Shown here: positions 38,432-64,000 of the stretch, piece by piece
Layout of the letters: each line of letters opens with the position of its first letter
How positions within the stretch are numbered: position 1 is the stretch's first letter
Assembly (NCBI RefSeq): GCF_023227875.1
Contig: NZ_JALOCH010000013.1
Coordinates: 5,977 to 69,976 of the forward strand
Direction of reading: 5' to 3'
Source: Methanoregula sp.
GTDB taxonomy: Archaea > Halobacteriota > Methanomicrobia > Methanomicrobiales > Methanospirillaceae
Length of the DNA: 64,000 nucleotides
Made by a program: the position numbers and the translations under genes
The notes under the pieces: model-generated
What the model saw: only the letters and a program-made list of their open reading frames with translations
What the model was told of the DNA's origin: nothing
Databases searched by the model: none

Positions 38432-38460
38432 CGCATTATCCCCCCTGGAGATCCCATAAT

Positions 38461-45683: not shown

Positions 45684-45696
45684 GAGGTATGACCGG

Positions 45697-47034: not shown

Positions 47035-47309
47035 CCTGACCCTGATCCGTGAAACGACAGAGATTACGATTGGTGCGTACTAACAATCGTAACCTGCGAC
47101 TCACGCGGGGCATGCGGGAGACCATCACTTCGGATGATCATGAGAGAATAATGTCGTACTCTTCATAGCACTCCCGATACTGCCAGAAGGTTCCATAGGA
47201 CAGACCTGCCGCTCTCAAATAATAAATTCTTACCAAGTACAATTTTTACTCTCAAAGTTTCAAAACATTAAAACATCTTAAAAATGATATTCTCCTGACA
47301 GAGGTTACC

Positions 47310-47952: not shown

Positions 47953-50900
47953 TTACTTTTTCTTCAGCGTGAGGTTGACCTCATTGACCATATTGGGCTG
48001 GACCATGAATCCTTCATAGGTTGCCTTGGTCTGGTTCTGGACCACCTTGATCGTATATTCCCCAGCAGTCATGTACTGGAATACGTACGGTGTTTTCTTC
48101 CCGGTATCCTTGCCATTGATGTAGATCTTGCCTCCCGAAGGCGTGCTTGCGATGGAAAGCATGCCGTTCAGGTAGGGGTCGAGGACAAAGCGGCGAACCA
48201 GGTCCACACCGGTAATATGGACGGTGCTTTCAAGGGGATAATATCCCGGCTTCGAGACCCTGATGAGATGGTCCATATCCGACAGGTTCCTGACGAGATA
48301 AGGGGTGGTAAGACCCGTGGAAAACCCGTCCACATAGATGTCTGCCCCGGGGGGATCGGATTCCACCCACACGTTGTTGAGAGTATATCTTCGGGGTTCT
48401 ATCACGTTTTCGCTGGAATTGTCCGCGAAGATCGTGTAGGTGATATAGGAATCGTTTGCATGGAGCGTGACATAATTCTGCGATGATTGTACCGGGATGC
48501 TCTCTGCCATATGGTACTGGTGCGAATTCCCGTTTATCGTGAATACGGAACTGTTGAATGCTGTTGAATTGATCACAGGTCGTGCAAGGACAGGGTTCTC
48601 ATACGAAGTGATAGAGACCGGGGTGATGATCCCGTTAGCAACCCAGACTTCCTTCTTCTCGATGGGGAACTTGATCTTCTCCTGGTTTGCGGACGCCGTG
48701 GTACTGAGTTTTACCTGTACGGTATGTTTGCCTTCCTTGAGGCCGTAAATAATTCCCGGGGTGGTAAAGCCGGTCTTCTTCCCGTCAACATAAATGATGG
48801 CCTGGTCGGGGCTAGACGTTACATATACACCCCCGTATTTTTCCTGATCCAGGAATTCTTTTTCGGTGTCTGCAACCTTTTCCAACGATAACACGGAAGT
48901 TCCCCGTGTTGCCAGATCAAATGTTATCGTCTGGTTTGTGGTAAGAAAAATCCGTTCCTCTACGGGGTCAAAACCCGGCATATCAACGGACAGGGTATGG
49001 TTCCCGGCCGTAAGACCCGTGACGGTATCCGGTGTTGCCTTGCCGCGGTACTGGTAATCCACCGAGACGAGCGCCCCGGGGGGGTTGGAGAGGACGCGGA
49101 CCGCGTACGTCTTGCCGGACTGGTTGAGGACTTCCTCAATCGGACCGGTTGCCAGCAGGGCCGTGTTTGTCTGGTTCACGGTACTGGTGGGATCGGAAGT
49201 ATCCTCCTCAACATCGGCTTCACCCCCTCTGACCGTGGAACTGCTATTGACGGCAAATCCCCCTTCAATGGCTTTTTTCACCACGAGAATGAGGTTCCGG
49301 TTTTCCATGTAATCGCCTTTGGTCTCCCGGCCAATGCTCCCGATACCTGCGCTGTTACCGGAACGCAGGACATCCGTGCTCACGTTCAGCCGCGCAATGC
49401 TGATGCCGGAGGATCCGCCACTCAGCGGGTTCTGCCACTCACGGCCATTGAACATGACCCGGTTGTCATTCCCGGATGCAGCAGTGCTGATGGCGTACAG
49501 TTCTCCCTGAGATATCGAGGTCATATTGAGCGCGCCGGGGAAGGTGATACGTGTAACGGCATTTTCCGTATCAACGTTGAACTCGGGGTTTGCATAGACA
49601 GCGTCGGAACCTTCCCCGATCCAGTACTCGATATCCTGGCCATCCGGGTCCTCGGACACGACAAGGAGCGTGACACCGTACACAGCAAACTTGTCCGGCG
49701 TTTCCCCGGTATTGGTAATGGTAAACGACAGGTCTGGGTTCCCGGTCACGATCCCGTCAGGAAGGTAACAATGCGTCTCGACCGGGTAATCGTAGGTCCC
49801 GCTCCCTTTCCGGTCGGAATACGTCTGGTCCTTTGTCAGCTGTTCGCCATTCATGTCCACCGTGAGGGATGCAGGGGTCCCGGCGAGGGTATCGGCATTG
49901 TAACTCCATGTCGTATAGACATACAGCCGGGCTTCCTTTACCGATGCATTCGGGGTCAGGTTGAGCGTGAGCGGGTAGGTGGCGCTCATACCCTTGCCAA
50001 GCAGCCCGGAATATCCCCCGGAGTCCCTGAGGTCAAGGCTGCCGTGCGCGGATCCGTGCGTATGCATTGAGAGGGATTTCCCGGAATACCCCACCGCTTC
50101 CGTTGAATTGTCGTTCAGGACTGATGTGTTGCCCCCGGCTGCCTCAAGGATGAGATCGACGGACTCTGTCTGGTCCTCCTCAAGGCTGACGGTTGCAGTT
50201 GCGTTACTGAAACCGGGTTTTACGAGGTCGATTGTGTGATCGCCGATAATTACTCCCTCCAGGAGGGAGTCTGACTGGGCCGACATGTTTTTCCCGTCAA
50301 GGTATATCCACGCACCGTCGGGATCGGATGTGATGTCAATGGACCCGTTGATCTGGGGGATGGTGATGTTCACTATCGTGGTCTCCTTGTTCCTGACGTT
50401 GACGGTTACCGGATCAGGTTCACGGTATTTATCATTGTCCACGAGGATTACCTGCACGGTATGCTCCCCGATACTGATGCCGGGGAAGGTCTGGTTGGTT
50501 GTCTTGCCGGTCTCTTCGTCATCAAGCAGGATCTGTGCCCCCGCGGGGTTGGAGGTTATCTCCAGCGTACCTTCCGGCCGTTCCCTGAATGCAACGGTGA
50601 GGAGTGCGAGGGGCAGTTTGAAATATCCGCCTGCCCGTTCGTACTTCAGCGTGCTGTCATCTTCCAGATCGATCGAATCGGTGACCTCCCAGTCCACTGT
50701 GCCAAAATACTCTCCCTGAGGAGCACCGTTCCCGATAAGTTCGTCGCCATTGAAGGTGTAGGTCCCGTCCACGCTTGCCATGTACAGCGAGGAGAGGGTG
50801 GCCGTAAATTCCCGGTCTTCGCTTGCAACGATCTGGGACGTACCGAATTCGGTTTCCCCGGTATAGCCGTTATCGTTCAATGCGCTCATGGGGTCGTGGC

Positions 50901-51501
50901 CTTCGTTGACCCAGTAATAGATTTTGTCCCCATCGTCATCATTGTAGGCAACGACCAGCGCGATAAACTTGATCCTGTCGTCGAACGAGGGGTCGACTTT
51001 CTCGGTCTTGACACTGACACCTACCGTATTGCCGGATAACTGGTTCTTGATATCGTACGCGAAGACATAATCGCTGGTCACCCGGTTGCCATGCGCCAGG
51101 TATACCGGGCCGGTCCCGCCGTTCCCGGGGTAAGAGTACGGGACATTCAGTTCTTCGTTGGCAAGGAGAAAATCCCCTGTCCCGTCCCCGTTGGTGTCGA
51201 GGCTTATGGTCGCCTTCCCCTCGTAGTTGTTCTGCATGTGGCCGCAATATACCCCAACATACAGCCGTGCCCATTCGATCGTCGTATGCGGGGGCAGGGA
51301 GAAGGACTTGTATGCTGAGCTGTGGGGGAATCCCGGGTAGGAATCGTACCAGAGACCTCCCGAGACAACACCGGAACTTACGGTCCGGAGCGGGATGCCG
51401 CCCATGTATTCGTTTGCGCTGGCGATCGGGAAGAGTACAAGACTCGTAGCAAGTACGAGTGCTGCGGCAATGCAGATGCTGCGGCCAACGGGTTTTTTCA
51501 T
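47953..51501 (-). CDS. Large secreted surface protein: two DUF3344 domains plus six PEGA repeats
   Basis: Signal peptide MKKPVG..PIASA then NEYMGGIPL..GVVSGGLWY (DUF3344); six ITS.P.GA.I..DG..TG..TP repeats. Confidence 0.82.
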   Translation of the reverse strand: MKKPVGRSICIAAALVLATSLVLFPIASANEYMGGIPLRTVSSGVVSGGLWYDSYPGFPHSSAYKSFSLPPHTTIEWARLYVGVYCGHMQNNYEGKATISLDTNGDGTGDFLLANEELNVPYSYPGNGGTGPVYLAHGNRVTSDYVFAYDIKNQLSGNTVGVSVKTEKVDPSFDDRIKFIALVVAYNDDDGDKIYYWVNEGHDPMSALNDNGYTGETEFGTSQIVASEDREFTATLSSLYMASVDGTYTFNGDELIGNGAPQGEYFGTVDWEVTDSIDLEDDSTLKYERAGGYFKLPLALLTVAFRERPEGTLEITSNPAGAQILLDDEETGKTTNQTFPGISIGEHTVQVILVDNDKYREPDPVTVNVRNKETTIVNITIPQINGSIDITSDPDGAWIYLDGKNMSAQSDSLLEGVIIGDHTIDLVKPGFSNATATVSLEEDQTESVDLILEAAGGNTSVLNDNSTEAVGYSGKSLSMHTHGSAHGSLDLRDSGGYSGLLGKGMSATYPLTLNLTPNASVKEARLYVYTTWSYNADTLAGTPASLTVDMNGEQLTKDQTYSDRKGSGTYDYPVETHCYLPDGIVTGNPDLSFTITNTGETPDKFAVYGVTLLVVSEDPDGQDIEYWIGEGSDAVYANPEFNVDTENAVTRITFPGALNMTSISQGELYAISTAASGNDNRVMFNGREWQNPLSGGSSGISIARLNVSTDVLRSGNSAGIGSIGRETKGDYMENRNLILVVKKAIEGGFAVNSSSTVRGGEADVEEDTSDPTSTVNQTNTALLATGPIEEVLNQSGKTYAVRVLSNPPGALVSVDYQYRGKATPDTVTGLTAGNHTLSVDMPGFDPVEERIFLTTNQTITFDLATRGTSVLSLEKVADTEKEFLDQEKYGGVYVTSSPDQAIIYVDGKKTGFTTPGIIYGLKEGKHTVQVKLSTTASANQEKIKFPIEKKEVWVANGIITPVSITSYENPVLARPVINSTAFNSSVFTINGNSHQYHMAESIPVQSSQNYVTLHANDSYITYTIFADNSSENVIEPRRYTLNNVWVESDPPGADIYVDGFSTGLTTPYLVRNLSDMDHLIRVSKPGYYPLESTVHITGVDLVRRFVLDPYLNGMLSIASTPSGGKIYINGKDTGKKTPYVFQYMTAGEYTIKVVQNQTKATYEGFMVQPNMVNEVNLTLKKK

Positions 51502-51739
51502 TGAGAGAAACCTGCCCGCCGCCATGAGGGGAATACATGTACTTCGCACTATTGACAGGATTGTTGTAATGCAGGAACCGTGGCGAGAGGCGATCATAAC
51601 GGACAGTTATTTATTTGCTATTATTAAAAATTTTATTGAGTTTCATTATAATTCGTATGAATTTTTTTAAAAATATTCTTACCTTGGCCGGACCTGTTCG
51701 CAGTCCCCCGTTAAGAACCATCGTTGTGCCTTTGGGAAA

Positions 51740-52861
51740 TTATCCGGGTTGCGGATAGAATACGGGAGTCATATTGGTCCCCGCCACAAACCGGCCGGCA
51801 TACTCATCCTGAATTGCCGATGGCTGGATATCGCGATACCCCTCCGGGTTGAGAATTCCTGCAAGGTAGGCAAGCCCGACAACCGAGCGGGGCCCATACA
51901 TGACACTGCCCAACATCACGTACACCTTGTTGTTCCTGACTGCACGGGTGTCTGAAATACCCGTCCGGGCGACAAGTTTGTCCCGGATCTCCCGGAGCTC
52001 CGTCTCGTTCTTTCCCGCTGCAGCAACTTTCACGATCACATCCGGGTCCTGGGCCGCAACCCATTCTGCATTGACCTTGGGTGAAGAGACCGGGAGCATG
52101 CCGGCGATATTACTGCCTCCGGCCATGGTGACCAGCAGGTCGCCCCCGCTTCCCATGGTCAGGGCAGAATAATCGGAGTATGATTCAATGTATACGCGGT
52201 TGGTTTCACCGGAGGTCCGGTCCACTGTGCGGGACTGCACGAGTGACTCATACTGTTCAAGGAACGAGATATACGCCTCTGCCCCATCCTCCCTGCCGGT
52301 CAGGTTCCCCAGCCGACGGGCATCGGACGCAAGCGTATCGATCTTGTAACAGTCAATGAGGAGGAGGGGGATGCCGGCCGATGTGATCTGATCGGTATTC
52401 TTGGGTGTATAACTCGAATAGCTGATCACCGCATCGGGGTGGAGCGAGAGGATCGTCTCAATATTGGGGGTCTGCCATGAGCCGATACTCTCTTTTCCGG
52501 CAAAGCGTGGGCCGAGTACAGGATGGTTCTTTACCGTATCAGATATGCCGACAACCTGGTCCCCTGCCCCGATGGCCAGGAGGAGTTCCGCTGCATCGGC
52601 ATTGGTGACGATGATGCGCTGCAGGGGGGTGCCGGGCGTTTGCGGGGTAACCGTAGTTGTGACCGGCAGGGTGGCAGACAATGCCGGGGTTATGGGCGAG
52701 GACAGGGAGGGGGGGGGTGCTGTTGCCGGTGTGGCTGATGCTTCCCTGCCGGACACGCATCCGGATACTGCACATGCAGCAATTATCAGGAGTATGAGGA
52801 GACACGCGGACAGGGCACCGGTTTGATGCGATAATTCTGATGGGGTATTTTTTTTCTTCAT
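51740..52861 (-). CDS. BtuF/FecB-like ABC substrate-binding lipoprotein
   Basis: VSGC lipobox, Pro/Thr linker, QRIIVTNADAAELL, PNIETILSLHPDAVI, AVRNNKVY. Confidence 0.9.
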   Translation of the reverse strand: MKKKNTPSELSHQTGALSACLLILLIIAACAVSGCVSGREASATPATAPPPSLSSPITPALSATLPVTTTVTPQTPGTPLQRIIVTNADAAELLLAIGAGDQVVGISDTVKNHPVLGPRFAGKESIGSWQTPNIETILSLHPDAVISYSSYTPKNTDQITSAGIPLLLIDCYKIDTLASDARRLGNLTGREDGAEAYISFLEQYESLVQSRTVDRTSGETNRVYIESYSDYSALTMGSGGDLLVTMAGGSNIAGMLPVSSPKVNAEWVAAQDPDVIVKVAAAGKNETELREIRDKLVARTGISDTRAVRNNKVYVMLGSVMYGPRSVVGLAYLAGILNPEGYRDIQPSAIQDEYAGRFVAGTNMTPVFYPQPG

Positions 52862-52934
52862 AATAACTCAGTCCTTTTCATGAGGGGGCGGATTCACGTT
52901 TTCGGAGAGCGCGTGCCCCGTGCATTCACGGGCA

Positions 52935-54149
52935 TCACGTATGCCGGATCGCCTCCACCGGATTCAGCCGTGCTGCCTGCAGGGCCGGGTAGATGCCGGA
53001 TACCAGTGAAAGGATGACGGCAACGAGAAATCCTGATAGCAGGATCTCCGGAGTGACCAGCGCAAGGTCATAGCGGGCGAATGCAGAGAAGAGCTCCCCG
53101 GTCTGGGAGATCAGGTACGCCTTTCCCGCGGTATTGATCACGTAGGAGAAAAGTATCCCAAGCAGATCTCCGAGCACCCCGCCTATCATGCCGATATACA
53201 GGCACTCGATCAGGATCAGGGTGACCACATCGCGCTGCGAGGCCCCGAGTGCCATGCTCACCCCGATTTCGCGCGTCCGTTCGTACACCGACATGACCAT
53301 CGTATTGACGATCATGAGGGCCCCGACAACGAGCGAGATCGCCGCAAAGATCGAGAGGAAGAGGATGACAAGATCCATGAAACGGTTGACGGTCTCGATC
53401 TGGCGGAATGCGCCGTTTGCGGTAAGACCGAGAGACTGGATCCCGCCTGCCACCGTGAGGACATTCTCCGGGTTGTCAACGCGTACATACACCGCGTTGT
53501 AGGGAACTGATTCATTGGACAGGGCGTGGATGGTATCCCGGTCCATGATGAGCAGGGAATCGAGCTGATCCTCCCTTTCGCGGAGCGTGCCGCCGGACCG
53601 GATTGCCAGTTTCCGGTCGGACGGGGCGCCATTCGGCGCATAGTCCCGGATGATGGCCGTGAAGAGATCGCCCTGCCGGATGCCTTCGTATTTCTGCAGT
53701 TTTTCGGCAAGTTCGTGCCCGATGACGACTTGGTTAGAACCGGCCGGATACAGGTCCCCTGCAGAAAATACCGGCGTGAACAGGACCCGCAGGTCCTCCG
53801 CGCTGATTCCCAGTACGTCGATATACGTCTGGTGCAGCGTGGAGAACGAGACCCGGTACACCGGCCCTGCGGCTTCAACATGGGGTATCTCCCTGATCAG
53901 GGAGACCTTGGATTCCGTGATGGGAATGACCGTCTCGTCCCTGACGGACCCGGTGACTTCGATAAGCGTGAGGTCCGACTGCTCTTTTATAGTCTCGATG
54001 GCCTGGTGGCGGATCCCCTCCCCGAACGAGACCATTCCCACTACGGCGGCAATGCCAATCGCTATCCCGAATGCGGTCAGGAACACACGCATCCGTTTTT
54101 TCAATACCTGGCGTGCAGAGAGCCGGGCAAAATCGGCCAGTTTTTTCAT
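52935..54149 (-). CDS. MacB/FtsX-family ABC permease
   Basis: RVFLTAFGIAIGIAAVV, extracytoplasmic domain, NTMVMSVYERTREIGVSMALGA, YPALQAARLNPVEAIR. Confidence 0.92.
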   Translation of the reverse strand: MKKLADFARLSARQVLKKRMRVFLTAFGIAIGIAAVVGMVSFGEGIRHQAIETIKEQSDLTLIEVTGSVRDETVIPITESKVSLIREIPHVEAAGPVYRVSFSTLHQTYIDVLGISAEDLRVLFTPVFSAGDLYPAGSNQVVIGHELAEKLQKYEGIRQGDLFTAIIRDYAPNGAPSDRKLAIRSGGTLREREDQLDSLLIMDRDTIHALSNESVPYNAVYVRVDNPENVLTVAGGIQSLGLTANGAFRQIETVNRFMDLVILFLSIFAAISLVVGALMIVNTMVMSVYERTREIGVSMALGASQRDVVTLILIECLYIGMIGGVLGDLLGILFSYVINTAGKAYLISQTGELFSAFARYDLALVTPEILLSGFLVAVILSLVSGIYPALQAARLNPVEAIRHT

Positions 54150-54814
54150 GTGCCGGTCACCTTCCCGTCAATGAGCCGGAACGACCGGTCCGCGTACTCC
54201 CCGAACTCCCGTTCGTGGGTGACCATGAAGAACGTGGTCTTCCGCACCCTGCTGATTTCCTGCATCAGGCTGAAGATATCAGCACTTGTTTTCTGGTCCA
54301 GGTTGCCGGTGGGTTCGTCGGCAAAAATGATGGGGGGGTTGCTGACGAGCGCCCGGGCGATTGCCACCCGCTGCTGTTCGCCGCCCGAGAGCTCGGCCGG
54401 GTGGTGGTGTTTCCGGTCGCCAAGGCCGAGGCTCGTGAGCAGTTCCCCGGCAGTGTGTGCCCGTATCTTCGGCTCATGGTAATTGAAGAGCATCGGGTAC
54501 TCGACATTCTCCTGTGCCGTGAGATGTGGCAGGAGGTTGAACTGCTGGAAGACAAACCCGATCTTCTGCCGCCGTATCGATACGAGCTGTGACGGGTCCC
54601 TGAAGTTCACGGGTACGCCGTCAAGGACAAGCGAGCCTGATGTGGGAGTGTCGAGACAGCCGAGGATGTTCAGGAGGGTGCTCTTGCCGGACCCGCTCCT
54701 CCCGATCAGGGTGACGAACTCTCCTTTTTCAATGGTAAAACTTGCTTCGGCAAGGGCAGGGACCCCGCCCCGGTATACTTTGCTCAACCGGTCCACTTCA
54801 ATGGTAGCAGGCAT
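54146..54814 (-). CDS. LolD/MacB-type ABC ATP-binding protein
   Basis: GRSGSGKST, GFVFQQFNL, LSGGEQQRVAIARAL, DEPTGNLD, VTHE. Confidence 0.93.
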   Translation of the reverse strand: MPATIEVDRLSKVYRGGVPALAEASFTIEKGEFVTLIGRSGSGKSTLLNILGCLDTPTSGSLVLDGVPVNFRDPSQLVSIRRQKIGFVFQQFNLLPHLTAQENVEYPMLFNYHEPKIRAHTAGELLTSLGLGDRKHHHPAELSGGEQQRVAIARALVSNPPIIFADEPTGNLDQKTSADIFSLMQEISRVRKTTFFMVTHEREFGEYADRSFRLIDGKVTGT

Positions 54815-54823
54815 GAGTCCACC

Positions 54824-55813
54824 TCACCGGAATACAATATGCAGTACAACGTTCGTCAGGAGCAGGTAATCCCCCCGGTCCTGGACGGCCACGGTATTCG
54901 ATCGCGGTGCCATGTACGCGGTGACGTCCCGCGTCTCGATACCGATCTGCTGCTGCTGGTCGGAGTCAAAGACATCCACCCACTCCTTTCCGTTCGCGTA
55001 GGGAAAGACGAGCCCGAGGATCACCGAAAGAAATTTCGGAAGATCGGAGTCCTGCTGGTGATTGAAGTACAGGGCATTTTTCCGGATAACATCCGAGCGC
55101 GTATATCCCCCGGAAGGTGCAACGAGTTCGAGGGTTGCAGACTTCATCCTGGCGGTGTCGATCTCCCGGTTGAAATCCACGCTGCTCGTTGCCATCTCCG
55201 GGGTGATGCCATAGCTGTAGTAGAGCATGTCGCAGCCTTCCTTTACAAGAATAAGGCCTTCCGGCTCCGAAGCGCTGCTGTACACGGCAAGGAGGCCGAT
55301 CCCCTGGATCACGAACGTGCTGTTGCTCTCTGCAGTATTGGCAACCCCGAAGGTGACCGTACTGGTCCCGGGGGGGAGTGGGGCCCCGGAGAAGGCATCC
55401 ACCCCGGAATAGAAATCACTCGGGCTTGAGAACCCCTTGTTGTCGGTATACCGTACAACCGGTTCGGCACTGGTCCCGTAAGCGGGACTGCTGATGGCGG
55501 CGATGGAGGGGTACACGGACTGCTCGTCCCTGCGGCTCCATGCCCAGTAGACATAATACCGCTGGTACTGGACGACCGCATCGTCCGGGAGGGTGACGGT
55601 AAATTCTACCGGGTACTGGTCGCCGGGTAGAAGCGTACCGCTGTACGTACTGTTGCCGGTCGAGAACGCGTACCCGCACTTCCCTTCGCAGGTATATGCA
55701 TCAAAGAGCGGCTTGTCGCCGGCATAGGTTGCAAGGACCGGGACGGCAAGGAGTGCAGCGCAGAGCAGGGCCATCACCGTCCTAGCCCGGGAAATCATAG
55801 CGGCCCTGCGCAA
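54824..55813 (-). CDS. Secreted DUF3344-domain protein
   Basis: Signal peptide then TYAGDKPL; YVYWAWS, YTDNKGF, LLAVY, EGCDML. Confidence 0.75.
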   Translation of the reverse strand: MRRAAMISRARTVMALLCAALLAVPVLATYAGDKPLFDAYTCEGKCGYAFSTGNSTYSGTLLPGDQYPVEFTVTLPDDAVVQYQRYYVYWAWSRRDEQSVYPSIAAISSPAYGTSAEPVVRYTDNKGFSSPSDFYSGVDAFSGAPLPPGTSTVTFGVANTAESNSTFVIQGIGLLAVYSSASEPEGLILVKEGCDMLYYSYGITPEMATSSVDFNREIDTARMKSATLELVAPSGGYTRSDVIRKNALYFNHQQDSDLPKFLSVILGLVFPYANGKEWVDVFDSDQQQQIGIETRDVTAYMAPRSNTVAVQDRGDYLLLTNVVLHIVFR

Positions 55814-57596
55814 TGTTATTGTTCCGGTTGCTGTCCTTTATGATCCCTGCTTCGTCTGCAACGACCTTCAGTTCATGGGTGCCCGGGGCGATGAAGACCG
55901 GGATCGCGATATCCGCCGTTGCATGTGCCGCGAGGCCCGCCTCGATCTGCTTATCGGCGATCTTCTCGCCGTCGAGATAGACGCTCACGGTGAAAGCCGG
56001 GGCATGGCTTCCCCCGTTGTTGGTGATCGTGAGGGGGAGGGTGTACTCAAGAGTGACCGTGTCTGCCCCGGCCGACACGATGATGCCGGGCACGACCAGC
56101 AGGACTGCAAGGAGAAGCATTGCTGCCGGAATGGTTGACGGGGGCCTCTTCCTGCTGAACCGCATGAGGAGGAGCACGCCGACGGCCCCGCATACCGTGA
56201 GGACCGACAGCGGGGACTTTGTGACGGTTACAGCAGCCTCCCCTTTGTGCACGGGAGATCCGATGCTTACGGAGAGATCGGGGGGGGTCCCGACCGTCAG
56301 CGGGAGCGAGGCCGCGTTGTTATCGGTCTTGGAATCTGCCGGCGCTGCCACACTGGCGGAAACGGTATGGCTTCCCGCTTCCGCAACCCAGGGTACCTGC
56401 ACGACGGTGATGCCACTCGCCGGGATCGTTGCCTGGGTCGTATTCATGGTTTTACCGTCAATCGCAAACGTGACCGGTACGGGTCCTGCCGGCTGATTCC
56501 CGTAACTCCGGATCTCTGCAACAAGGACCGCATTTTCTCCCGCAAAGGCGTTCTCTGCACGGATGCTTTCCGTTGCAAGGTCTGTCACCGGACTGCTGCC
56601 GGGTCTTGTGACGGTAAGGATCGCCATGACAGGGTGTATGTAATCCTCTCCCTCCGGGGCATCACCGGTGGTTACAATGGACCCGTCACCGTCAAGGTCG
56701 AAACCCCGGATGAAGCGTGCGGTGCTGGTCTCCTTCACAAGAGATGTGACTTCGAAGACTTCCATGTCGGCATACCGCGAGGGAATCCCGGTACCCCCAC
56801 CGGCATCGAATGATATCTCGTCGCCGATGTCCGTGACATTCCTGCCGGACATGTTCCGGATCGGCACCCCGAGGTACTGCCCGTTGAACTGCACGTAATC
56901 CGGCTGGCCTTTTCCCCCGGCAAGGAGGAGGACCGAGAGGTTGGCCCGGGTCACACCGGTTAATCCTGCACTGGTGAAGGTGACGTTCGTATCCTCGTGC
57001 TTTGTCGGGTTGGTCCCGGCCCAGCCTTCGCCATGGAGGTTCTCGTTGCCTTCCGCTATCCAGTACTGTGTCTGTTCCCCGGATTCCGGATCATCCACTA
57101 CGGCAGCAACAAGGATCGCGTATACCCTGCCGTCCAGTTTGTTGCCGGGATCGGTCTTGCTTGTATTGACCGTGATGAGGTTGTCACCCCGTGTGAGAAG
57201 ATCCGTCGGGTCGTATGCGATCCAGTAGATGCCGTGACCCGATTCATAGAGATCGCGGTTCTGGTCCCGGTCGCCGTTGAGGAGATACCTCGCTTTCTTT
57301 TTATTATTGATGGTGATGTCCGCCCAGCCGGTATATTTTTCCGTGCCCCCCCAGATGCCGGTGTAGACCCGGGCATACCGGGGCACGGACGGGAGGGTGA
57401 ACTTGAGTTCGTACGGTGGTTTGTCGAGGCCGTATTCCCCGAACATGAGGACGTCGCCGGTTACGGTCCCCTGTGCGGTTACAGTGAGAGGAATGCCTTC
57501 GAAATCGTAGAGAGCTGATACCGGGTACATCACGATACCCAGTGCCAACAAGGACAGGAGAAGAGAGACAGACGTTAATCGTACCATGTATACCAT
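55782..57596 (-). CDS. Secreted DUF3344 plus CARDB protein with an internal membrane hairpin
   Basis: Signal peptide then LYDFEGIPL..GTVTGD; ARVYTGIWGG; DGRVYAI; CARDB-like DLATESI.. and TITNNGG..FTVSVYLDG..HELKVVAD..E..NN. Confidence 0.8.
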   Translation of the reverse strand: MVYMVRLTSVSLLLSLLALGIVMYPVSALYDFEGIPLTVTAQGTVTGDVLMFGEYGLDKPPYELKFTLPSVPRYARVYTGIWGGTEKYTGWADITINNKKKARYLLNGDRDQNRDLYESGHGIYWIAYDPTDLLTRGDNLITVNTSKTDPGNKLDGRVYAILVAAVVDDPESGEQTQYWIAEGNENLHGEGWAGTNPTKHEDTNVTFTSAGLTGVTRANLSVLLLAGGKGQPDYVQFNGQYLGVPIRNMSGRNVTDIGDEISFDAGGGTGIPSRYADMEVFEVTSLVKETSTARFIRGFDLDGDGSIVTTGDAPEGEDYIHPVMAILTVTRPGSSPVTDLATESIRAENAFAGENAVLVAEIRSYGNQPAGPVPVTFAIDGKTMNTTQATIPASGITVVQVPWVAEAGSHTVSASVAAPADSKTDNNAASLPLTVGTPPDLSVSIGSPVHKGEAAVTVTKSPLSVLTVCGAVGVLLLMRFSRKRPPSTIPAAMLLLAVLLVVPGIIVSAGADTVTLEYTLPLTITNNGGSHAPAFTVSVYLDGEKIADKQIEAGLAAHATADIAIPVFIAPGTHELKVVADEAGIIKDSNRNNNIAQGRYDFPG

Positions 57597-57667
57597 CCCG
57601 GAAAAGATTCAGATTCAATATACCTGCTATAATAATTCAGATAAAGATTGTTATTTTGTTGTGATAA

Positions 57668-57694
57668 GTGATATTATTTTAATTTTCGTAATAC
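57668..57694. promoter_or_regulatory. Candidate NikR-type operator upstream of the DUF3344 operon
   Basis: GTGATAT-N13-GTAATAC (12/14). Confidence 0.4.
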
Positions 57695-57707
57695 CGGTAC
57701 TTCAGGA

Positions 57708-58589
57708 TCAGGATTCTTCTGCTCCCGTGGCCAAAGAAAGTACTGCATCCTTGCGCTCCCCTGCCACCTGCCGGTCAGTATAATCGTAATGGGAGATTTT
57801 TTCGATGATTACATAGAACATGTCCCTGTGCCGGTGATTATACCGGAAGGCCAGTTCCTGTACAAAATCAGGGATCTGTGCGCGTTCCAGATACCGGTGA
57901 CGGGACCAGAGGGTCTGGGCAAAACGCCAGAATACCGTAAGCGGCGGCCAGGTTCCCCGGTTTTTTGGTGTGAGGATGACGGTTTCCTGGTTGCAGCGAT
58001 CCGGATAATAGGCAATGAGGCCATGATACTGCTTCTCGCAGGCATCGATGAAGAGGACGGTACTGCGGATCGACCACGGAATCTCCATCTGGATGATTAT
58101 ATCCGGGAAGGGTGTCTCATATCGCTCGATCTCAATAACCTCGGCATGAATGCGGATACCGAAGACGACCGGATCCAATCGCGATGCAGTAGGGTGCTGC
58201 AGAATGTTTCCAGCAATTGAAAGACCAGGTCCCGGTACGGCCGGCCCATCAATGATCGCAAGGCGGATCCGCCGGTAGATCCTGTTCACCATCGCACGCT
58301 CCATGTGCAGCTGCGCGACCGCTTCATCCGGGGGAATGTCATCGGCAAACATCCTGATTATGCGGATGAACTGCAGGTAGGTGATTTGCGTGTTCTCAAT
58401 AATACTTCCCCTTCGGAGACCCCAGGTAAAGCCACAGTCGCTGCACCTGCTCCGGCCCCGGCTTACGGATACCACCCGGGTACTGCCGCACAGGGTGCAG
58501 GGCTGAACGGCCCGGAGGATTCCGGCACCTATCAGGAACTTCTTTGCAGCGGATTCATTGCGTATCAGGTTCTCATTGATGACACTCAT
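57708..58589 (-). CDS. IS1595-family transposase-derived protein with degenerate catalytic motifs
   Basis: Zn ribbon CTLC..RCSDC, HTH (AVAQLHMERAMVNRIYRRIR), C-terminal FW..A....QELAFRYNHR; no recognisable DExY/NGIE motifs. Confidence 0.65.
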   Translation of the reverse strand: MSVINENLIRNESAAKKFLIGAGILRAVQPCTLCGSTRVVSVSRGRSRCSDCGFTWGLRRGSIIENTQITYLQFIRIIRMFADDIPPDEAVAQLHMERAMVNRIYRRIRLAIIDGPAVPGPGLSIAGNILQHPTASRLDPVVFGIRIHAEVIEIERYETPFPDIIIQMEIPWSIRSTVLFIDACEKQYHGLIAYYPDRCNQETVILTPKNRGTWPPLTVFWRFAQTLWSRHRYLERAQIPDFVQELAFRYNHRHRDMFYVIIEKISHYDYTDRQVAGERKDAVLSLATGAEES

Positions 58590-58653
58590 TTTATCATCCC
58601 GTTCCAAGGATTTGATTTATTAATAATAAATTATCAGTAATTTTTTCCATTAC

Positions 58654-58680
58654 GTAATACTTTTTTAAAAAAAGTATTAC
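58654..58680. promoter_or_regulatory. Perfect inverted-repeat operator (NikR-like)
   Basis: GTAATAC-TTTTTTAAAAAAA-GTATTAC, 65 bp upstream of the 58589 start. Confidence 0.65.
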
Positions 58681-59419
58681 ATTCTATTTATAAATTTTGA
58701 AACTGCCCGGGCCCGTGAACTGTGATATCCCCGGTTACCAAGATTGCACGCAACCTCTCCAAAGGGTTCACCGTAGTGCGGGAATGTGCCGGGGATTAAA
58801 CGCCCTGCGCTGATGAGCGTTTTATTCAATTCCAATAAGGAGTGTCACACAATATGGTTCAATTAATAATACGGAATCAATTTGGATATTCACTGTGTTA
58901 ACAACCTGCTATGAAAATAATACTATACTATTAATAATGTGCAAAAACGGGTTGTGAATAATTATGTACAGTATTTACAGAGATTATCATGCACTCTGAA
59001 TTTACACATTACTTATTAGTGCAATTTTCAAAAGGCGCACCGATCCCAGGCATCAGAAACGCCCGGCAATTGCAGGTAACCGGGGCTCAATTATCCAGGG
59101 GCGCATACCGCGTATGAAAAATCTACGGCTCATGAAACCGGGGCCGCCATCGGTATTGCAGGGAATAATTCCGGTAACCGGATCACGTGCAATCGCCCCC
59201 CAGCCCGATCGGGCTTTTGACTTGGGCCGCACGGATCCCTGCGGCCGGCACCGGGATTTCAGGATCTATATTCCGGAATCAGGATTCGCTACCCCCACAG
59301 CCATGGGGGGAATATCGTAGCCGGCGGCAGATTTCATTTCATTCTCATCTGGCTGCTGCTTTGCGATTACGATGCTGGCGATGCCGGTTCGTTGGCAGGG
59401 ATTTGTTAGGGTCCGTTGA

Positions 59420-59648
59420 TCATATCCGAAGCAACCGGAGATAATCTTCCCGTGTCATCCCAACGGTTTTCATATTATTAAGAATTATTGTGACCGGGAC
59501 TTCATCGTAACGGGGTATCACAACTGCCCGTTTGGCAGCCGGGTGATGGTAGATCAGATGATCGCCGCTCTGGCGGACGAATGTGCATCCCGATTTTTCA
59601 AATATCCTGACTTGAGTTTTCCAGTCAGTGGGGGATATTTTTTTTCAT
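59420..59648 (-). pseudogene. hicA: HicA toxin with a +1 frameshift in an A8 run just after ATG
   Basis: ATG-A8-TATCCCCC; with A7 it reads MKKISPTDWKTQVRIFEKSGCTFVRQSGDHLIYHHPAAKRAVVIPRYDEVPVTIILNNMKTVGMTREDYLRLLRI*, including the HicA G(D/S)H motif. Confidence 0.75.
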
Positions 59649-59724
59649 CGGGCATCACAGGGAAATGTATCAGAAAAATGAACCGGAACGGATCCTCATT
59701 TCCAGCAGGAGGTTTTTATGGGCA

Positions 59725-60003
59725 CTACAATACGGGAATCGGGATCCGGATCTCTTCGAAACATACGATTTTTTTGCCGGTCTTTATGACATCGCCATCC
59801 CGGATATACCCGGATTCGCTGAGCAGATCGTCAAGTGTCCCCAGTTTTGCGATCTCTTCCAGCTGGATCGTGATGACTTCCGCTAAATTCTTACGCGCTT
59901 CCTCTTGCGTGTGACCGCAGCTGGCGATATCGAGTTCCGGGCAGTATGAAGTATACATGCCTCCCTCCTTCCAGATTTCAGCAGTAGTGATGAGATCCCG
60001 CAT
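59725..60003 (-). CDS. hicB: HicB-family antitoxin
   Basis: EGGMYTSYCPELDIASCGHTQEEARKNLAEVI. Confidence 0.87.
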   Translation of the reverse strand: MRDLITTAEIWKEGGMYTSYCPELDIASCGHTQEEARKNLAEVITIQLEEIAKLGTLDDLLSESGYIRDGDVIKTGKKIVCFEEIRIPIPVL

Positions 60004-60437
60004 ACGTTTTCCGCCCCTATCCACTTGTATATCCGTACCTGTTAATGAGGTATGTGGTGACCGTTTTTGTGTAACGAATCTTTCAATGAAATGAGGTTGC
60101 GGAAAAAAACCGCAGGATTCATTGATGGAGTTTTAAGTCGTCATGTCTGTGCCGTGCTCTTCCGCACTGACGGCAAACGCGATCAGAATCCGGGAACGCT
60201 TCTTTCCTGATAATATCTACAATTCCTTGACCGGTTTTCCCCAATCACTATTTCCTTGCCTGGCACACACGTTCCCGTGTCGCCAGCAGGGGACGCGATC
60301 CTGCGCGCTTTCCGGCTCTTCCAGGTATTGTTTTCGGAGGGGCACGGATGCGCTCGCCCAGATAAAATCTGTGCGAAAAAAAAACGGCATACCTTTTACA
60401 GGGATCCTTGCAGCCGGGATATCCCGACGATGTAAGA

Positions 60438-60911
60438 TCAGTTCTTTTTCAGAATGCCATCCCTGAATTTTTCAAGGGGCATAGTATCCGGTTTGAAAAA
60501 TCCGGCATTTTCCAGGACTGCGGGAACCCGGTACCTGATCAGGTTCTTGTCGGAGGTCAGGAAATAATCAGAAGCATATGCCATCGCATATGCCAGATGA
60601 GTACGATCCGTGGGTTCCCGGATCATCCTGCTGTCGATCTCCACTTCCCCCATCTGGTAACATAGGATTCTTACATAGTCATTCGGGAAATGAATCGCGA
60701 CATTCCAGTCATCAAGTGCCTGATTCAGGTACGTGATATAATCTATCGCATTCGAATGTTCATGCATCTGGGCAAGTGCCTCGCCAAGAACCGAGATGGA
60801 CGTCCTGATCTGGTAATCCATGTTCAATGCATGTTCCAGAATGGTCGCGGTCTGGGGGGATTCGATACCCTGAAAGAATATTGTAGTATCAAGAAAAAGA
60901 GAAGCTTTCAT
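60438..60911 (-). CDS. PIN-domain (VapC-like) protein
   Basis: LFLDTT, VLGEA, TDRTHLAYA, FLTSDKNL: four acidic PIN positions. Confidence 0.82.
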   Translation of the reverse strand: MKASLFLDTTIFFQGIESPQTATILEHALNMDYQIRTSISVLGEALAQMHEHSNAIDYITYLNQALDDWNVAIHFPNDYVRILCYQMGEVEIDSRMIREPTDRTHLAYAMAYASDYFLTSDKNLIRYRVPAVLENAGFFKPDTMPLEKFRDGILKKN

Positions 60912-61069
60912 GGGGTGATAGCTTTGAGCCGCTTCATTGTTTCGCGGTATTCCGCCTCATCAATCGCAGATGAGATCTTTCCCCGGGTAACCGCACCGCC
61001 ATAGGGGAGCATCCCTCTCTGGTAGGGTTTCCCGATTACCTCTTCCGGTTTGAATTTTTTCGCTGGCAT
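60908..61069 (-). CDS. Small 53-aa putative antitoxin coupled to the PIN gene (not in the ORF track)
   Basis: MPAKKFKPEEVIGKPYQRGMLPYGGAVTRGKISSAIDEAEYRETMKRLKAITP*; ATGA overlap with the PIN start. Confidence 0.65.
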   Translation of the reverse strand: MPAKKFKPEEVIGKPYQRGMLPYGGAVTRGKISSAIDEAEYRETMKRLKAITP

Positions 61070-61129
61070 TTTTGAGAACTCCTGTACTATCGGATTGGTA
61101 TGGTGAATCTGATAATGGTTGTGTTGGAT

Positions 61130-61300
61130 TCACTCAATAGAGGCTATCTCCCCTTTTAGGAGGACATCGGCAAAATAGTAAATGTGGATATTGGTATCAA
61201 AGAGGTACCGTTTCACGTCCGTTCCCATTCCTGCCGCAGGCACATTAGTTCACGCTCGAAATCCAGTTCAAGATTGCGATAAATTCCGGAAGACTTTTAG
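61130..61300 (-). pseudogene. Remnant vapBC pair
   Basis: Antitoxin-like tail GIYRNLELDFERELMCLRQEWERT* overlaps the PIN N-terminus KRYLFDTNIHIYY, which stops after 32 aa. Confidence 0.5.
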
Positions 61301-61545
61301 GATATGGAGTTATAACAGGGGGCCTCCTGTACCCGGGCAATGAAAAATGATGATATCGCTTCAAAATTGAAAAAAACTAAACGATTATACGCGATTCTCT
61401 TTTATAAGGCGCTCCATTATCCCGCTGCCAACCGTATTGAAATCCTTCCAAACGCCAGTCCTTCCGTTCTTTGATAGTATCCCCGCTTCCCTTGCGTATA
61501 ACTCTGGATGAACCGGACCTTGAGTCTGCACGGCCGAACGCCTCG

Positions 61546-61965
61546 CTATTCCGTACTGATCCTATCGTACACTATTCGTGCCGATTCCACGACGATTCCG
61601 GCAGACTCTGCATTATAGATGCAACCATAATCGGCACCTTCCCTGAGATCCATGGCAAAGGAAAAATGATCCAGTACATCCGGCCCGAGTTCCCCCTCAT
61701 CGACCAGCAGTGCCTCGACTGCATGCCTGAGGCACCGGTGGCTCTTTTCGCGGTAACCTTTCGCAAATATCCGGGATCTCAACGAGTGGAAGAGTGAATA
61801 ATATCCCTGAATGATTGCCCACTTCACCTGGTTTTGGCCAAGCGAATGTTCAGCCGCCACGAGATCCGCCGCTGCTTCCTCGCGTTCTTTTTCTACCAGC
61901 GCGGGATCGACCGGGATTTTTACGATCTTTCCCCGTTCGAGACATTCCTCAAACCGGTACCTCAC
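61546..61965 (-). CDS. HEPN-domain protein (MNT-HEPN pair)
   Basis: ADLVAAE..AIIQGYYSLFHSLR..YREKSHRCL..LREGADY. Confidence 0.87.
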   Translation of the reverse strand: MRYRFEECLERGKIVKIPVDPALVEKEREEAAADLVAAEHSLGQNQVKWAIIQGYYSLFHSLRSRIFAKGYREKSHRCLRHAVEALLVDEGELGPDVLDHFSFAMDLREGADYGCIYNAESAGIVVESARIVYDRISTE

Positions 61966-62507
61966 AGCATCTCACCTGCAAGAAGTTTTCCTGTGCGTAT
62001 CCTTTCGAAGAACGGGCGGTCGCGGGTCCGGAGCTGCTGTGCCTCATCTGGGGATACGAGAACCGGAGAGATTTTCCGGGAAATGGTGTCACCACACCGT
62101 GAGATGAGGTCGGATACTTCCGGCCGGTTGGCAGTTTCGATATAGAGATCGATATCGCTGTCGGCGGTATCTTCTCCGGTAGCGCAACTCCCGAACAGGA
62201 TCATCCGTATAACGAGTCCCTTTCCGGCAGCGATGAGGGGGGAAAGTTCTATCAGGGTTGCAAGGATCTTTGATTCCCGTACGACCGGATGGGCGATATC
62301 TGCCCGGAACAGGAGCGTTCTCCCTTTCCGTTCGCTTGTTACGAGACCGTATTCTTCCAGTACCCGGAGATACCCGCTCGCAGCACCGGTACTCAACGGA
62401 AGGATCCTGGCGATCTCGCGAACATAATACGAGTTGCGGTAATTCCGGCCAAGAAACGTGAGAATTACAAAAGAAGGGGTTTCCAAGATGTTCATTTTTT
62501 TGAACAT
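61962..62507 (-). CDS. Winged-helix plus minimal nucleotidyltransferase (MntA-type antitoxin)
   Basis: YYVREIARIL..ASGYLRVLEEYGLV; ILFGSCATGEDTADSDIDLYIE. Confidence 0.87.
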   Translation of the reverse strand: MFKKMNILETPSFVILTFLGRNYRNSYYVREIARILPLSTGAASGYLRVLEEYGLVTSERKGRTLLFRADIAHPVVRESKILATLIELSPLIAAGKGLVIRMILFGSCATGEDTADSDIDLYIETANRPEVSDLISRCGDTISRKISPVLVSPDEAQQLRTRDRPFFERIRTGKLLAGEML

Positions 62508-62525
62508 ATGTTCATTATTATGAAC
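62490..62525. promoter_or_regulatory. Tandem palindromic operator at the MNT-HEPN start
   Basis: GTTCA-N6-TGAAC twice (62490-62505 and 62510-62525). Confidence 0.5.
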
Positions 62526-62867
62526 GATATTATTTAGCAGTTATGATGCATCCTTAGGGAGAACGCTCCGGTAAGGCACCAGATGAGATTATTCATTTCG
62601 ATACACTATGTGATCATCACCGGTTCCACCCGGCGCGGAAAACCCGCGAGCCGGGCATAGTGCCGGTACCTGTTGGTGTTGTATAATGTACATTCTATGG
62701 TGCATTGCAGAAGGGTATACTGTACTTCCTATTCATCTGAAAAAATCCCGCGCTGATGATAGTACAATGCGGTATATCACTGGAAGATACCACGGATTGT
62801 ATACAAATTTACCTATTGCATAAGACGATCCATATACTGCACCGCCCATACCGTTCTCCCCGGCCAA

Positions 62868-62894
62868 GTATTACCAAAAAAAAAATCGTAAAAT
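62868..62894. promoter_or_regulatory. Candidate NikR-type operator upstream of the terminal DUF3344 gene
   Basis: GTATTAC-N13-GTAAAAT (12/14). Confidence 0.35.
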
Positions 62895-63022
62895 CAAATG
62901 CTACAAATTTTTAAAAACGTATTAATAGATCTTACGCAAATGAGATCGTGTTCGCAACCGGTTCAGCTGATGATTATGCACGCATATCCGTTGCCGGTCC
63001 CGCGAGCAAGGAGAATCTCTCA

Positions 63023-64000
63023 ATGCAAACAACAAGAACAGAATCAAGACTCGGCAGGTTTTCATACCTGCTCAAGGGCGGAGCAAAGCCGCGCAGGAAC
63101 CACATATTCATCATCGCGCTGGCACTTATGGTGCTCCTGTCGTTCGCCGGCGTGGTGTCGGCGGACAACTACTGGCTGGGCACACCGCCGGTAACAGGAC
63201 CACACGGCACGGTGAATGGCGACGTCGATGTCAAGTTTGCCGACACGTGGAAGACTGACAACCCGGCTACTAACGACAACACAACAGCGACATTTACCGG
63301 TCTCACTACCTCAAATGTCCAGTTCGCACGGCTGTATGTTATGGTGTACACCGGGAACATGACGGAGAACTGGACCGGAACGGAGACTATTACCCTGGTC
63401 CCAAGCGGGGGTGCCCCCGTAGTCCTTGCAAACGCGCAACCACTGGATCTCGATTACGCCAGGGAGGTTGGGGCGTATTTCAACACGTCAGTCACAGCAC
63501 CCTTCATTACAACGGGTACTGGATTAGGCCGTGTAACAAGTGACTATATCTCAGTCTTCGATGTGAAGGACTACATCACCGCCTCGGACATGACGGTGTA
63601 TATCAACACGACCCCGGCCGACGGATTCCCAAGGTTTGACGGCCGCGTCAAGGAAGCCCGCCTTGTGTACGGCTGGGATGTGGATTCCGGTTCAACCGGT
63701 TGTACGGAGTACTGGATCAATGAAGGCCACGATCCGGTGACCAAGAACCTTGAAGACCCGTACACCGCGAACTTAACTACGTTCGGTAGTGTGTCCCATG
63801 CAACCAACTACACCGCAACGTTGTATGTGGATTATTCGGCAACATACTTGGGGAACGGCACCTACACATGGAACGGTGTTGACATCTCGAAGGGGACGTC
63901 ATATGCACCCACGATTACCCCTGGGTATTACGCAGGAACCAATAAGTGGACCTGGAATGATCTCAGCAGCGGCCCCGGCCTCGCGAGCGGCAACAATGTT
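63023..64000 (+). CDS. Secreted DUF3344-domain surface protein, truncated by the window end (not in the ORF track)
   Basis: AAGGAG RBS; MQTTRTESR..IIALALMVLLSFAGVVSA|DNYWLGTPPVTGPHGTVNGD..ARLYVMVYTGNM..FDGRVKEARLVY..YWINEGHDP; open to the end of the window. Confidence 0.8.
   Translation, partial: MQTTRTESRLGRFSYLLKGGAKPRRNHIFIIALALMVLLSFAGVVSADNYWLGTPPVTGPHGTVNGDVDVKFADTWKTDNPATNDNTTATFTGLTTSNVQFARLYVMVYTGNMTENWTGTETITLVPSGGAPVVLANAQPLDLDYAREVGAYFNTSVTAPFITTGTGLGRVTSDYISVFDVKDYITASDMTVYINTTPADGFPRFDGRVKEARLVYGWDVDSGSTGCTEYWINEGHDPVTKNLEDPYTANLTTFGSVSHATNYTATLYVDYSATYLGNGTYTWNGVDISKGTSYAPTITPGYYAGTNKWTWNDLSSGPGLASGNNV

Follow-up and report, generated by a model that had tools for sequence, protein, structure and literature searches.

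What do DUF3344 proteins do at the surface of methane-metabolising archaea, and why are they encoded beside an ATP-binding cassette (ABC) transporter, among genes related to nickel? This question is raised by a stretch of DNA of 64,000 nucleotides (hereafter "the window") from an uncultured Methanoregula species known from landfill and groundwater metagenomes (assembly GCF_023227875.1, contig NZ_JALOCH010000013.1, positions 5,977 to 69,976), which carries four genes with DUF3344 domains (Pfam PF11824). An earlier note on this DNA had proposed that two domain types form an obligate unit that serves as a receptor for metal chelates or tetrapyrroles. We find that the DUF3344 family consists of two sharply separate subtypes, A and B, that are almost always combined, and that one gene of each type is followed, in a conserved order, by the genes of an ABC pair. 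We tentatively regard this cassette as a nickel-regulated module of the cell envelope. In the window it forms part of a run of seven co-oriented genes on the minus strand, from 58.6 to 47.9 kb, with p299 as the first gene and the large DUF3344 protein as the last. The seven genes and the remaining DUF3344 gene are the following (aa, amino acids; ORF, open reading frame):

57708-58607, minus strand: p299, cytoplasmic protein with an N-terminal CxxC...CxxC zinc ribbon, first operon gene in Methanoregula
55782-57596, minus strand: A1, 604 aa, with a DUF3344 domain, a CARDB domain, a transmembrane hairpin and a second CARDB domain (Pfam, 134.0 bits)
54824-55813, minus strand: B1, secreted protein with DUF3344 alone, 329-aa ORF, really 324 aa (Pfam, 213.9 bits)
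54146-54814, minus strand: ABC ATPase of the LolD/MacB/FtsE class (Pfam ABC_tran)
52935-54149, minus strand: FtsX-type permease with a MacB-like extracytoplasmic domain, type VII ABC by its sequence (Pfam MacB_PCD and FtsX)
51740-52861, minus strand: class III substrate-binding protein of the BtuF/haem/siderophore type (Pfam Peripla_BP_2)
47953-51597, minus strand: large secreted protein, 1214 aa, with two DUF3344 domains and six PEGA repeats (Pfam, 411.7 bits)
63023-64000, plus strand: fourth DUF3344 gene, A-type (A2-like), running past the end of the window (Pfam, 98.2 bits)

Subtypes A and B of the DUF3344 family

The four genes contain five DUF3344 domains, in agreement with the earlier note, and each gene exceeds the gathering score of PF11824 (27.2 bits). 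The note had described the genes as co-oriented, which is true of the genes of the operon, whose neighbours are as it described, but not of the fourth gene, which lies on the opposite strand beyond ~4.4 kb of toxin-antitoxin genes. The motifs on which the two subtypes had been based can all be located in the sequences of the window (ARLYVGVYCGHM, ARVYTGIWGG, ARLYVMVYTG, DDRIK/DGRVK, ARLYVYTTWS, YYVYWAWS and YSDRKG/YTDNKG). Pairwise identity among the five domains ranges from 20 to 35% and does not by itself set A apart from B, so that larger samples of domains were needed. BLAST cross-hits, clustering and subtype-specific hidden Markov models (HMMs) each separate A from B cleanly. Among 119 database homologues, the second match of the B1-like proteins is always the internal domain of the large protein (45-94 bits), and that of the A1-like proteins is always its N-terminal domain. 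In an unsupervised clustering of 199 DUF3344 domains from 55 related loci and the window (BLAST score, unweighted pair group method with arithmetic mean), the first branch separates the N-terminal domain of the large protein, A1 and the partial fourth gene from the middle domain of the large protein and B1; the finer clusters are A1 (58 domains), A2 (40), B1 (56), B2 (22) and two smaller groups on the B side. An independent sample of the whole family comprised 145 representatives at 50% identity, of 872 present among 1.84 billion proteins, and on their 311 domains the score margins between the A and B HMMs are bimodal, with zero intermediates. The proposed split is reproduced in all three tests.

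The architectures of the 145 representatives include AB (52), ABB (19), BA (8), ABA (6) and BAB (6), plus others. A and B are mixed in 104 of the 110 multi-domain proteins, and in 60 of the 64 two-domain proteins, where 50% would be expected (p = 2.7e-14). They are combined either in neighbouring genes or in A-to-B fusions with PEGA, PKD or CARDB stalks; the 21 A2-B2 fusions found in the loci are, every one of them, in the A-to-B order. The occurrence of the same pair in fused and split forms is classic evidence of joint working, and on this ground the A and B types probably work together. Nonetheless, to call the unit obligate, as the earlier note did, goes too far, because single-type proteins exist: 22 A-only and 13 B-only proteins among the representatives, and 12 A2-only ORFs in the loci. 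The three papers that mention DUF3344 in the library searched contain no description of the A/B subtypes, or of the cassette and the operator discussed below.

The large protein had been described as A, two PEGA repeats, B and four PEGA repeats, and this layout is exact, since its six PEGA repeats (residues 344-404, 419-479, 832-892, 923-982, 1075-1136 and 1146-1206) map around DUF3344 domains at residues ~63-335 and ~520-775. Its likely start is M33 (51501), and it has no recognisable membrane anchor, though stalk repeats are present. In Methanomicrobiales its orthologues come after the permease or the binding protein, always in the A-to-B arrangement.

The likely start of A1 is M4 of the 604-aa ORF (57587). 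The protein consists of a signal peptide, the A-type DUF3344 domain, a CARDB domain, a hairpin at residues ~465-510, whose loop, RFSRKRPP, faces the cytoplasm, and, at the C-terminus, a second CARDB domain of ~90 aa that is extracellular. This architecture of ~600 aa, with the hairpin and its positively charged loop, has been kept in Methanomicrobiales, Methanosarcinales and ANME-1, while B1 possesses only a signal peptide. A1 resembles a fusion of two genes, yet its length of ~600 aa is kept across orders. Its conserved features further include two invariant His residues and a DLDGDG loop. The motif YCGHM, which had been offered as a possible metal ligand, has to be rejected as such: among 37 A2-type domains the Cys is present in 19 and the His in 17, and A1 is devoid of the motif.

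The likely start of B1 is M6 of its 329-aa ORF (55798). It overlaps the stop of A1 by 17 nucleotides, which suggests translational coupling, and across the loci the overlap of the two genes ranges from 14 to 32 nucleotides. The family of 324-aa B1 orthologues has 29 invariant residues, most of them Tyr, Trp, Asp, Glu, Lys or Gly. Directly after the predicted cleavage site of the signal peptide, the family has the invariant motif YAGDKPL, which implies a functionally important mature N-terminus. A related motif, Y..G.PL, opens the A-type domains too, and the motif E-G-x-D/E is found throughout DUF3344.

The conserved cassette and its ABC pair

A pattern scan with one genome per species detected relatives of B1 in the 55 loci mentioned above, which were annotated with the window's own proteins. 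Nearly all of them belong to methane-metabolising Halobacteriota, with hosts from Methanoregula, Methanofollis, Methanoculleus, Methanogenium, Methanocalculus, Methanosarcina, ANME-1, ANME-2 and Methanoperedens; cassettes from Methanocella were added by a separate look-up. The adjacency of the A and B genes, noted before in the window, recurs throughout, with A1 directly upstream of B1 in 40 of the 45 loci with enough flanking sequence, and with exceptions that are mostly frameshifted or fused. The suggested tie to a MacB-type ABC also stands: in 50 of 52 loci the next gene downstream of B1 encodes a MacB-class ATPase, and an FtsX permease is present in 40 of 45. The order A1, B1, ATPase, FtsX permease is conserved in Methanomicrobiales, Methanocella, Methanosarcinales, ANME-1 and Methanoperedens, and it holds for about 90% of the 55 loci. 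It is followed by a large A2-B2 stalk protein in Methanomicrobiales and by other A/B proteins in Methanosarcinales and ANME. In three loci (L043, from Methanogenium cariaci JCM 10550, L050 and L054) the cassette appears fragmented, with a split FtsX gene, a split B1 gene and an A1-B1 run-on ORF, and we therefore suspect pseudogenisation or assembly errors there.

The best NCBIfam matches of the ATPase are LolD, DarD, MacB and FtsE, all below the equivalog cut-offs, and its gene overlaps that of the permease by 4 nucleotides. The permease has a MacB_PCD domain (residues 23-165), an FtsX domain (267-397) and four transmembrane helices, and among PDB sequences it matches MacB, YtrF, LolE/C/F and FtsX. 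Judged by their sequences, the two proteins constitute a type VII ABC transporter (MacB superfamily). To our knowledge, no archaeal example of a MacB-type ABC has been characterised.

The substrate-binding protein encoded in the same operon matches Peripla_BP_2 with 97.5 bits and has a lipobox-like sequence, AVSGC, with a Pro/Thr/Ser linker. Its matches in the PDB are BtuF and binding proteins for haem and siderophores (E about 1e-13), while all its NCBIfam equivalog matches fall below the cut-off. It probably serves the FecCD/ABC importer at 44511-46473, which has no binding-protein gene of its own adjoining; no other gene for a class III binding protein was found among the scanned ORFs, which extended from 38.4 kb to the end of the window. 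The earlier note had made this BtuF-like protein a defining partner of DUF3344. However, it lies inside the cassette in 7 of 7 Methanoregula loci and in none of 30 loci elsewhere, and for this reason we assign the role of the defining partner to the type VII ABC instead.

The first gene of the operon is likewise confined to Methanoregula. Homologues of p299 (350-584 bits) are located directly upstream of A1 in four loci (L001, L002, L004 and L005), and the other genera are without it. Its only Pfam match is a weak one, to Zn_ribbon_IS1595 (E = 0.006), in keeping with a weak resemblance to IS1595/IS91 zinc ribbons, and p299 may be a domesticated transposase or a regulator.

A candidate NikR operator and the neighbouring metal genes

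The region upstream of p299 contains a perfect 27-bp palindrome, GTAATAC-N13-GTATTAC, at 58654-58680, its sole exact match in the 64 kb; a degenerate version of the pattern gives 1 match in the window against 0.2 expected. The palindrome lies just 3' of the TATA-like sequence TTTATAAATA (minus strand) and ~47-65 nucleotides upstream of the start of p299. It is kept at the same position upstream of p299 in L001, L002, L004 and L005, which represent four other Methanoregula species, in the form GTAACAC or GTAAGAC-N13-GTATTAC, and similar boxes precede A1 in L003 and L010. The published NikR boxes with which we compared it are bacterial, namely GTGTTAC-N13/14-GTAACAC in delta-proteobacteria, reversed orientation included, and GTATGAT-N13/14-ATCATAC in enteric bacteria (PMC545781). 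The site at 58654-58680 fits their general form, an inverted repeat of 27-28 bp with 7-nucleotide half-sites spaced by 13-14 nucleotides, and we consider it a candidate NikR operator that overlaps the promoter.

A matrix trained solely on the sites upstream of p299, with scores checked against 300 shuffles, finds its second-best match in the window at 34665-34691 (GTAACAC-N13-TTCTTAT, 17.9 bits, a score reached in 0 of 300 shuffles), 5 nucleotides upstream of the first ORF of an operon that resembles nikABCDE. The third-best match, GTGATAT-N13-GTAATAC at 57668-57694, ~80 nucleotides upstream of A1, is only suggestive, because its score of 12.1 bits is reached in 37 of 300 shuffles. Neither the large protein nor the fourth DUF3344 gene has a significant candidate box upstream, and when palindromes upstream of A1 were surveyed in other genera, no clear motif common to them emerged. 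A scan for sigma-70 promoters and intrinsic terminators was uninformative, the host being archaeal.

The genes between the large protein and the nikABCDE-like operon are as follows:

47310-47732, plus strand: NikR, with a ribbon-helix-helix domain and the nickel-binding domain NikR_C (Pfam and NCBIfam, above cut-off), convergent with the large-protein gene
45697-46473, plus strand: ABC ATPase of a chelate-type importer (Pfam)
44511-45683, plus strand: FecCD permease of a chelate-type importer (Pfam)
42500-44449, plus strand: ChlI/ChlD fusion of a class I chelatase pair (Pfam, NCBIfam)
38461-42279, minus strand: CobN-like protein of a class I chelatase pair (Pfam, NCBIfam)
37475-38518 and 36753-37478: ABC-2-type exporter pair, an ATPase with a DrrA C-terminal domain and a permease, abutting CobN in the same direction
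36044-36520, minus strand: second NikR paralogue
28647-34691, minus strand: nikABCDE-like operon, with a SAM (S-adenosylmethionine) methyltransferase, SBP_bac_5, two BPD_transp_1 permeases and two ABC/oligo_HPY ATPases (Pfam)

The second of the two nikR genes, the nik-like importer and the box near its operon lead us to regard the ~30 kb from 28.6 to 58.7 kb as a nickel island, which holds both nikR genes, the nikABCDE-like importer, the Fec-type importer and the CobN/ChlID chelatase. The evidence on the regulator speaks for nickel and not specifically for F430, B12 or haem. Methanothermobacter marburgensis produces CobN1 and NikR1 only when nickel is limiting (PMC12350162).

Metal genes accompany the cassette in other genomes as well. 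CobN, ChlID or FecCD occur within 10 kb of it in 10 of 19 other Methanomicrobiales loci, a raw count, and the chelatase and Fec genes are arranged around it in at least six ways, including divergent, convergent and with CobN directly before A1 in the same direction. In Methanocella, two cassettes are interleaved with FecCD, ABC and binding-protein genes, and 8 loci of Methanosarcinales and Methanoperedens have CbiQ and EcfA adjoining the cassette. A paper on plasmids of Methanoperedens independently recorded DUF3344 proteins that come after NikR and neighbour CbiMNQO (PMC9674854). Three Methanosarcina loci (L056, positions 3183-14734, L029 and L053) have a fused EcfA1A2 ATPase and CbiQ (EcfT) flanking the cassette, with no obvious S component, and downstream an ArsR-type regulator and a gene for nicotianamine synthase, the latter 3 kb from the cassette; in these three the usual FtsX permease after the ATPase was not detected. 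When 235 unassigned ORFs from the neighbourhoods were pooled and scanned with Pfam, they proved to be mostly unrelated genes, save for CbiQ and surface-protein domains. The proposed location of DUF3344 near chelatase and metal-uptake genes is upheld for the A1-B1-ABC cassette and fails for three Methanosarcina loci that have DUF3344 without the cassette, in which no metal genes were found within 10 kb. The link to metals belongs to the cassette and not to DUF3344 in general.

Some features of the window lie apart from these subjects. Between the operon and the fourth DUF3344 gene (59725-62507) there are three modules that resemble toxin-antitoxin systems:

within 59725-62507: PHD/HicB-like ORF of 99 aa
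60438-60911: PIN gene, with an overlapping ORF of 53 aa
61546-61965 and 61962-62507: HEPN gene and a gene for a helix-turn-helix nucleotidyltransferase

A2-only genes syntenic with the fourth gene are located on the opposite strand in L002, L005, L006 and L008. The interval between the nik-like operon and the second nikR (34692-36043, ~1.35 kb) is AT-rich (GC ~0.44) and has no ORF that reaches 90 aa, and the ~520 bp upstream of the other nikR (46789-47309) contain no convincing ORF but a 12-nucleotide inverted repeat at 47061-47095.

Readings of the locus and comparison with known systems

Both domain types were modelled with AlphaFold2 as all-beta tandem sandwiches, B1 with a predicted local distance difference test score (pLDDT) of 85.6 and a predicted template modelling score (pTM) of 0.83, and the A1 domain with 85.8 and 0.88. 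The models are tandem jelly rolls that lack a close solved relative. In a Foldseek search against the PDB, both returned only weak matches (template modelling [TM] scores 0.19-0.29), to double-jelly-roll capsid proteins, tandem carbohydrate-binding modules, PNGase F-type enzymes, BcsB and Cry toxins; the PNGase structures 9lwg, 3ks7 and 3pms rank near the top for the A and the B model alike (TM scores 0.24-0.29). Profile searches of PDB sequences gave nothing significant for DUF3344, with sub-threshold matches to galectins (E about 0.04), whereas the CARDB domains were matched. Because the matches are weak and of the generic jelly-roll kind, no function can be transferred from them, and the predicted fold would say "binding module" while remaining silent on what is bound. 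The analogy to TonB-dependent receptors and Isd proteins drawn in the earlier note finds no echo here, as Pfam and PDB searches gave no match to NEAT domains or to TonB-dependent receptors, and the models are soluble tandem beta-sandwiches with neither NEAT nor barrel features.

The reading we favour, with a confidence that stops a little short of even, is that the cassette is a nickel-regulated module of the cell envelope, in which a MacB/LolCDE-type (type VII) ABC acts together with complementary DUF3344 A and B partners in the outer step of nickel acquisition. Ni-NikR would repress the operon, and a shortage of nickel would switch it on. At the cell surface, A and B would join into a heteromeric binding unit of tandem jelly rolls, and the large A-B fusion could reach the surface layer (S-layer). 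The ABC motor would be unable to import, since the precedent of the MacB-type family is export or transmission of force; instead, it would power A1/B1 mechanically via the extracytoplasmic domain of the permease, with the outcome that a captured nickel species is released to the binding protein and the importers, or that a chelator is expelled.

A number of observations weigh against this reading. The alignment of B1 orthologues contains no invariant His or Cys, and the conserved residues, aromatic and acidic, are more usual in sandwiches that bind glycans or calcium; the fold matches, besides being weak, are lectin-, CBM- and PNGase-like (CBM, carbohydrate-binding module). Strong NikR-type boxes turned up only in Methanoregula and one Methanoculleus, and by the matrix most other loci have none. 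The frequency of metal genes in Methanomicrobiales is a raw count, as stated above, the three loci without the cassette are free of metal genes, and the cassettes of ANME-1 have housekeeping neighbours (glutamyl-tRNA synthetase, Mtd) and no metal genes. Finally, a search of RNA sequencing runs found the sequence only in DNA metagenome runs, from landfill and groundwater.

It is conceivable, though in our opinion unlikely, that these are general surface or adhesion proteins, fibrillar-adhesin-like or associated with the S-layer, with lectin-like A/B heads on PEGA, PKD or CARDB stalks, an ABC that serves envelope maintenance, and a proximity to nickel genes that reflects lineage-specific synteny and no link in function. 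A screen for fibrillar adhesins indeed contains a DUF3344 cluster of ambiguous function (PMC9210967), and the tandem jelly-roll models with their weak best matches (carbohydrate-binding modules, PNGase F, capsid double jelly rolls, galectins), the abundance of stalk domains, and the absence of metal genes from the non-cassette loci and the ANME-1 cassettes are all in line with such a role. It leaves aside, however, that the NikR-type operator at the head of the operon is kept across Methanoregula and cross-validated on the nik-like promoter, that three importer families (Fec-type, energy-coupling factor [ECF], and plasmid NikR/CbiMNQO) recur by the cassette in varied arrangements, and that the gene for the importer's binding protein sits within the operon. 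The last point, together with the adjoining Fec-type importer and CobN chelatase and with the same association in other Methanomicrobiales and in Methanocella, would also fit the model of the earlier note, a passive receptor at the level of the S-layer that captures tetrapyrroles or metal chelates (F430, B12, haem) and hands them over to the BtuF-like protein. We hold this model to be quite improbable, because no host outside Methanoregula has the binding protein in the cassette, the partner found universally is an ABC of the exporter or mechanotransducer type, YCGHM is not conserved, and the fold is neither NEAT-like nor a barrel. Moreover, the regulator is NikR, and no B12 riboswitch or haem regulator turned up, Rfam not having been scanned.

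MacB-family transporters are exporters or mechanotransducers, and PvdRT exports pyoverdine. On this precedent the ABC pair might export a chelator of nickel or cobalt, such as a nicotianamine-like compound, with A1, B1 and the large protein as adaptor or duct across the pseudo-periplasm and the S-layer and with the adjoining chelate-type (Fec-type) importer taking the complex back; the nicotianamine synthase gene near the cassette in the three Methanosarcina loci would suit this idea. Yet neither the window nor the other sampled lineages have nicotianamine synthase, the Methanoregula operon has no biosynthetic genes, and jelly-roll sandwiches are unlike the known adaptor proteins, so that we see little prospect for it. 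We attach still less credence to a control of the FtsEX kind, in which DUF3344 would be a PNGase-F-like or other glycan-processing enzyme whose activity on glycans of the S-layer or envelope is switched by the ABC motor. The FtsEX-EnvC/PcsB paradigm, the PNGase structures among the best matches of both models, and the family-wide E-G-x-D/E motif with other invariant acidic residues speak in its favour; but TM scores of just 0.24-0.29 are low, no catalytic residues can be mapped, and the NikR operator and the importer neighbours are left unexplained. A bolder extension of the favoured nickel-acquisition reading, which we offer as a long shot, is that the cassette is the first archaeal type VII ABC "mechanotransducer", with an A/B head, partly on a PEGA stalk, that is induced by nickel starvation. 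The head would grip an outside source of nickel, either a chelate or a nickel-bearing sulfide mineral, and the motor would strip the metal and pass it to the importers. It has been reported that methanogens need direct contact with a nickel-bearing sulfide mineral (PMC10617489).

For DUF3344, our analysis adds a two-subtype architecture, a conserved MacB-type ABC partner, a predicted regulator and the setting of a nickel island. Methanogens and methane-oxidising archaea have an unusually high need for nickel (F430, hydrogenases, carbon monoxide dehydrogenase/acetyl-CoA synthase), and in their habitats sulfide keeps free nickel extremely low. The cassette is thus a testable candidate for the outer step of nickel acquisition in the makers and consumers of most biological methane, and orthologues of it exist in the genetically tractable Methanosarcina.

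Among known systems, the closest comparison is with the type VII ABC systems (FtsEX-EnvC/PcsB, LolCDE-LolA, MacAB-TolC and YbbAP-TesA). The cassette shares with them an ATPase of the LolD/MacB/FtsE class as a separate protein, an FtsX permease that has four helices and a large MacB-type extracytoplasmic domain between the first and second transmembrane helices, and the genes for secreted or membrane-anchored partners alongside. It differs in that its host, an archaeon, lacks both an outer membrane and peptidoglycan, in that the partners are DUF3344 tandem jelly rolls rather than coiled-coil adaptors, LolA or lipases, and in that the module is apparently nickel-regulated; its putative coupling to the partners is suggested by the conserved gene order and the A1 hairpin. 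With bacterial NikR regulons (nikABCDE, nikMNQO) it has in common the nikR genes next door, a 27-bp inverted repeat of the form 7-N13-7, the half-site GTAACAC of the relatives, which is identical to the delta-proteobacterial one, and a nik-like importer in the window with a similar box; here, however, the putative targets encode surface proteins and an ABC of exporter type in place of an importer. Fibrillar adhesins and S-layer-associated proteins likewise have a signal peptide, PEGA/CARDB/PKD stalk repeats and a terminal beta-sandwich head, but not the strict A/B head, the conserved operon with an ABC motor and the nickel-gene context. With TonB-dependent receptors and Isd/NEAT proteins the sole likeness is the idea of outer capture upstream of a class III binding protein and importer, since there is no plugged beta-barrel, NEAT fold or TonB, and the energising partner is a MacB-type ABC. 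A type VII ABC with extracytoplasmic partners is a known kind of system, whereas an archaeal, apparently nickel-regulated one with a new family of partners is new.

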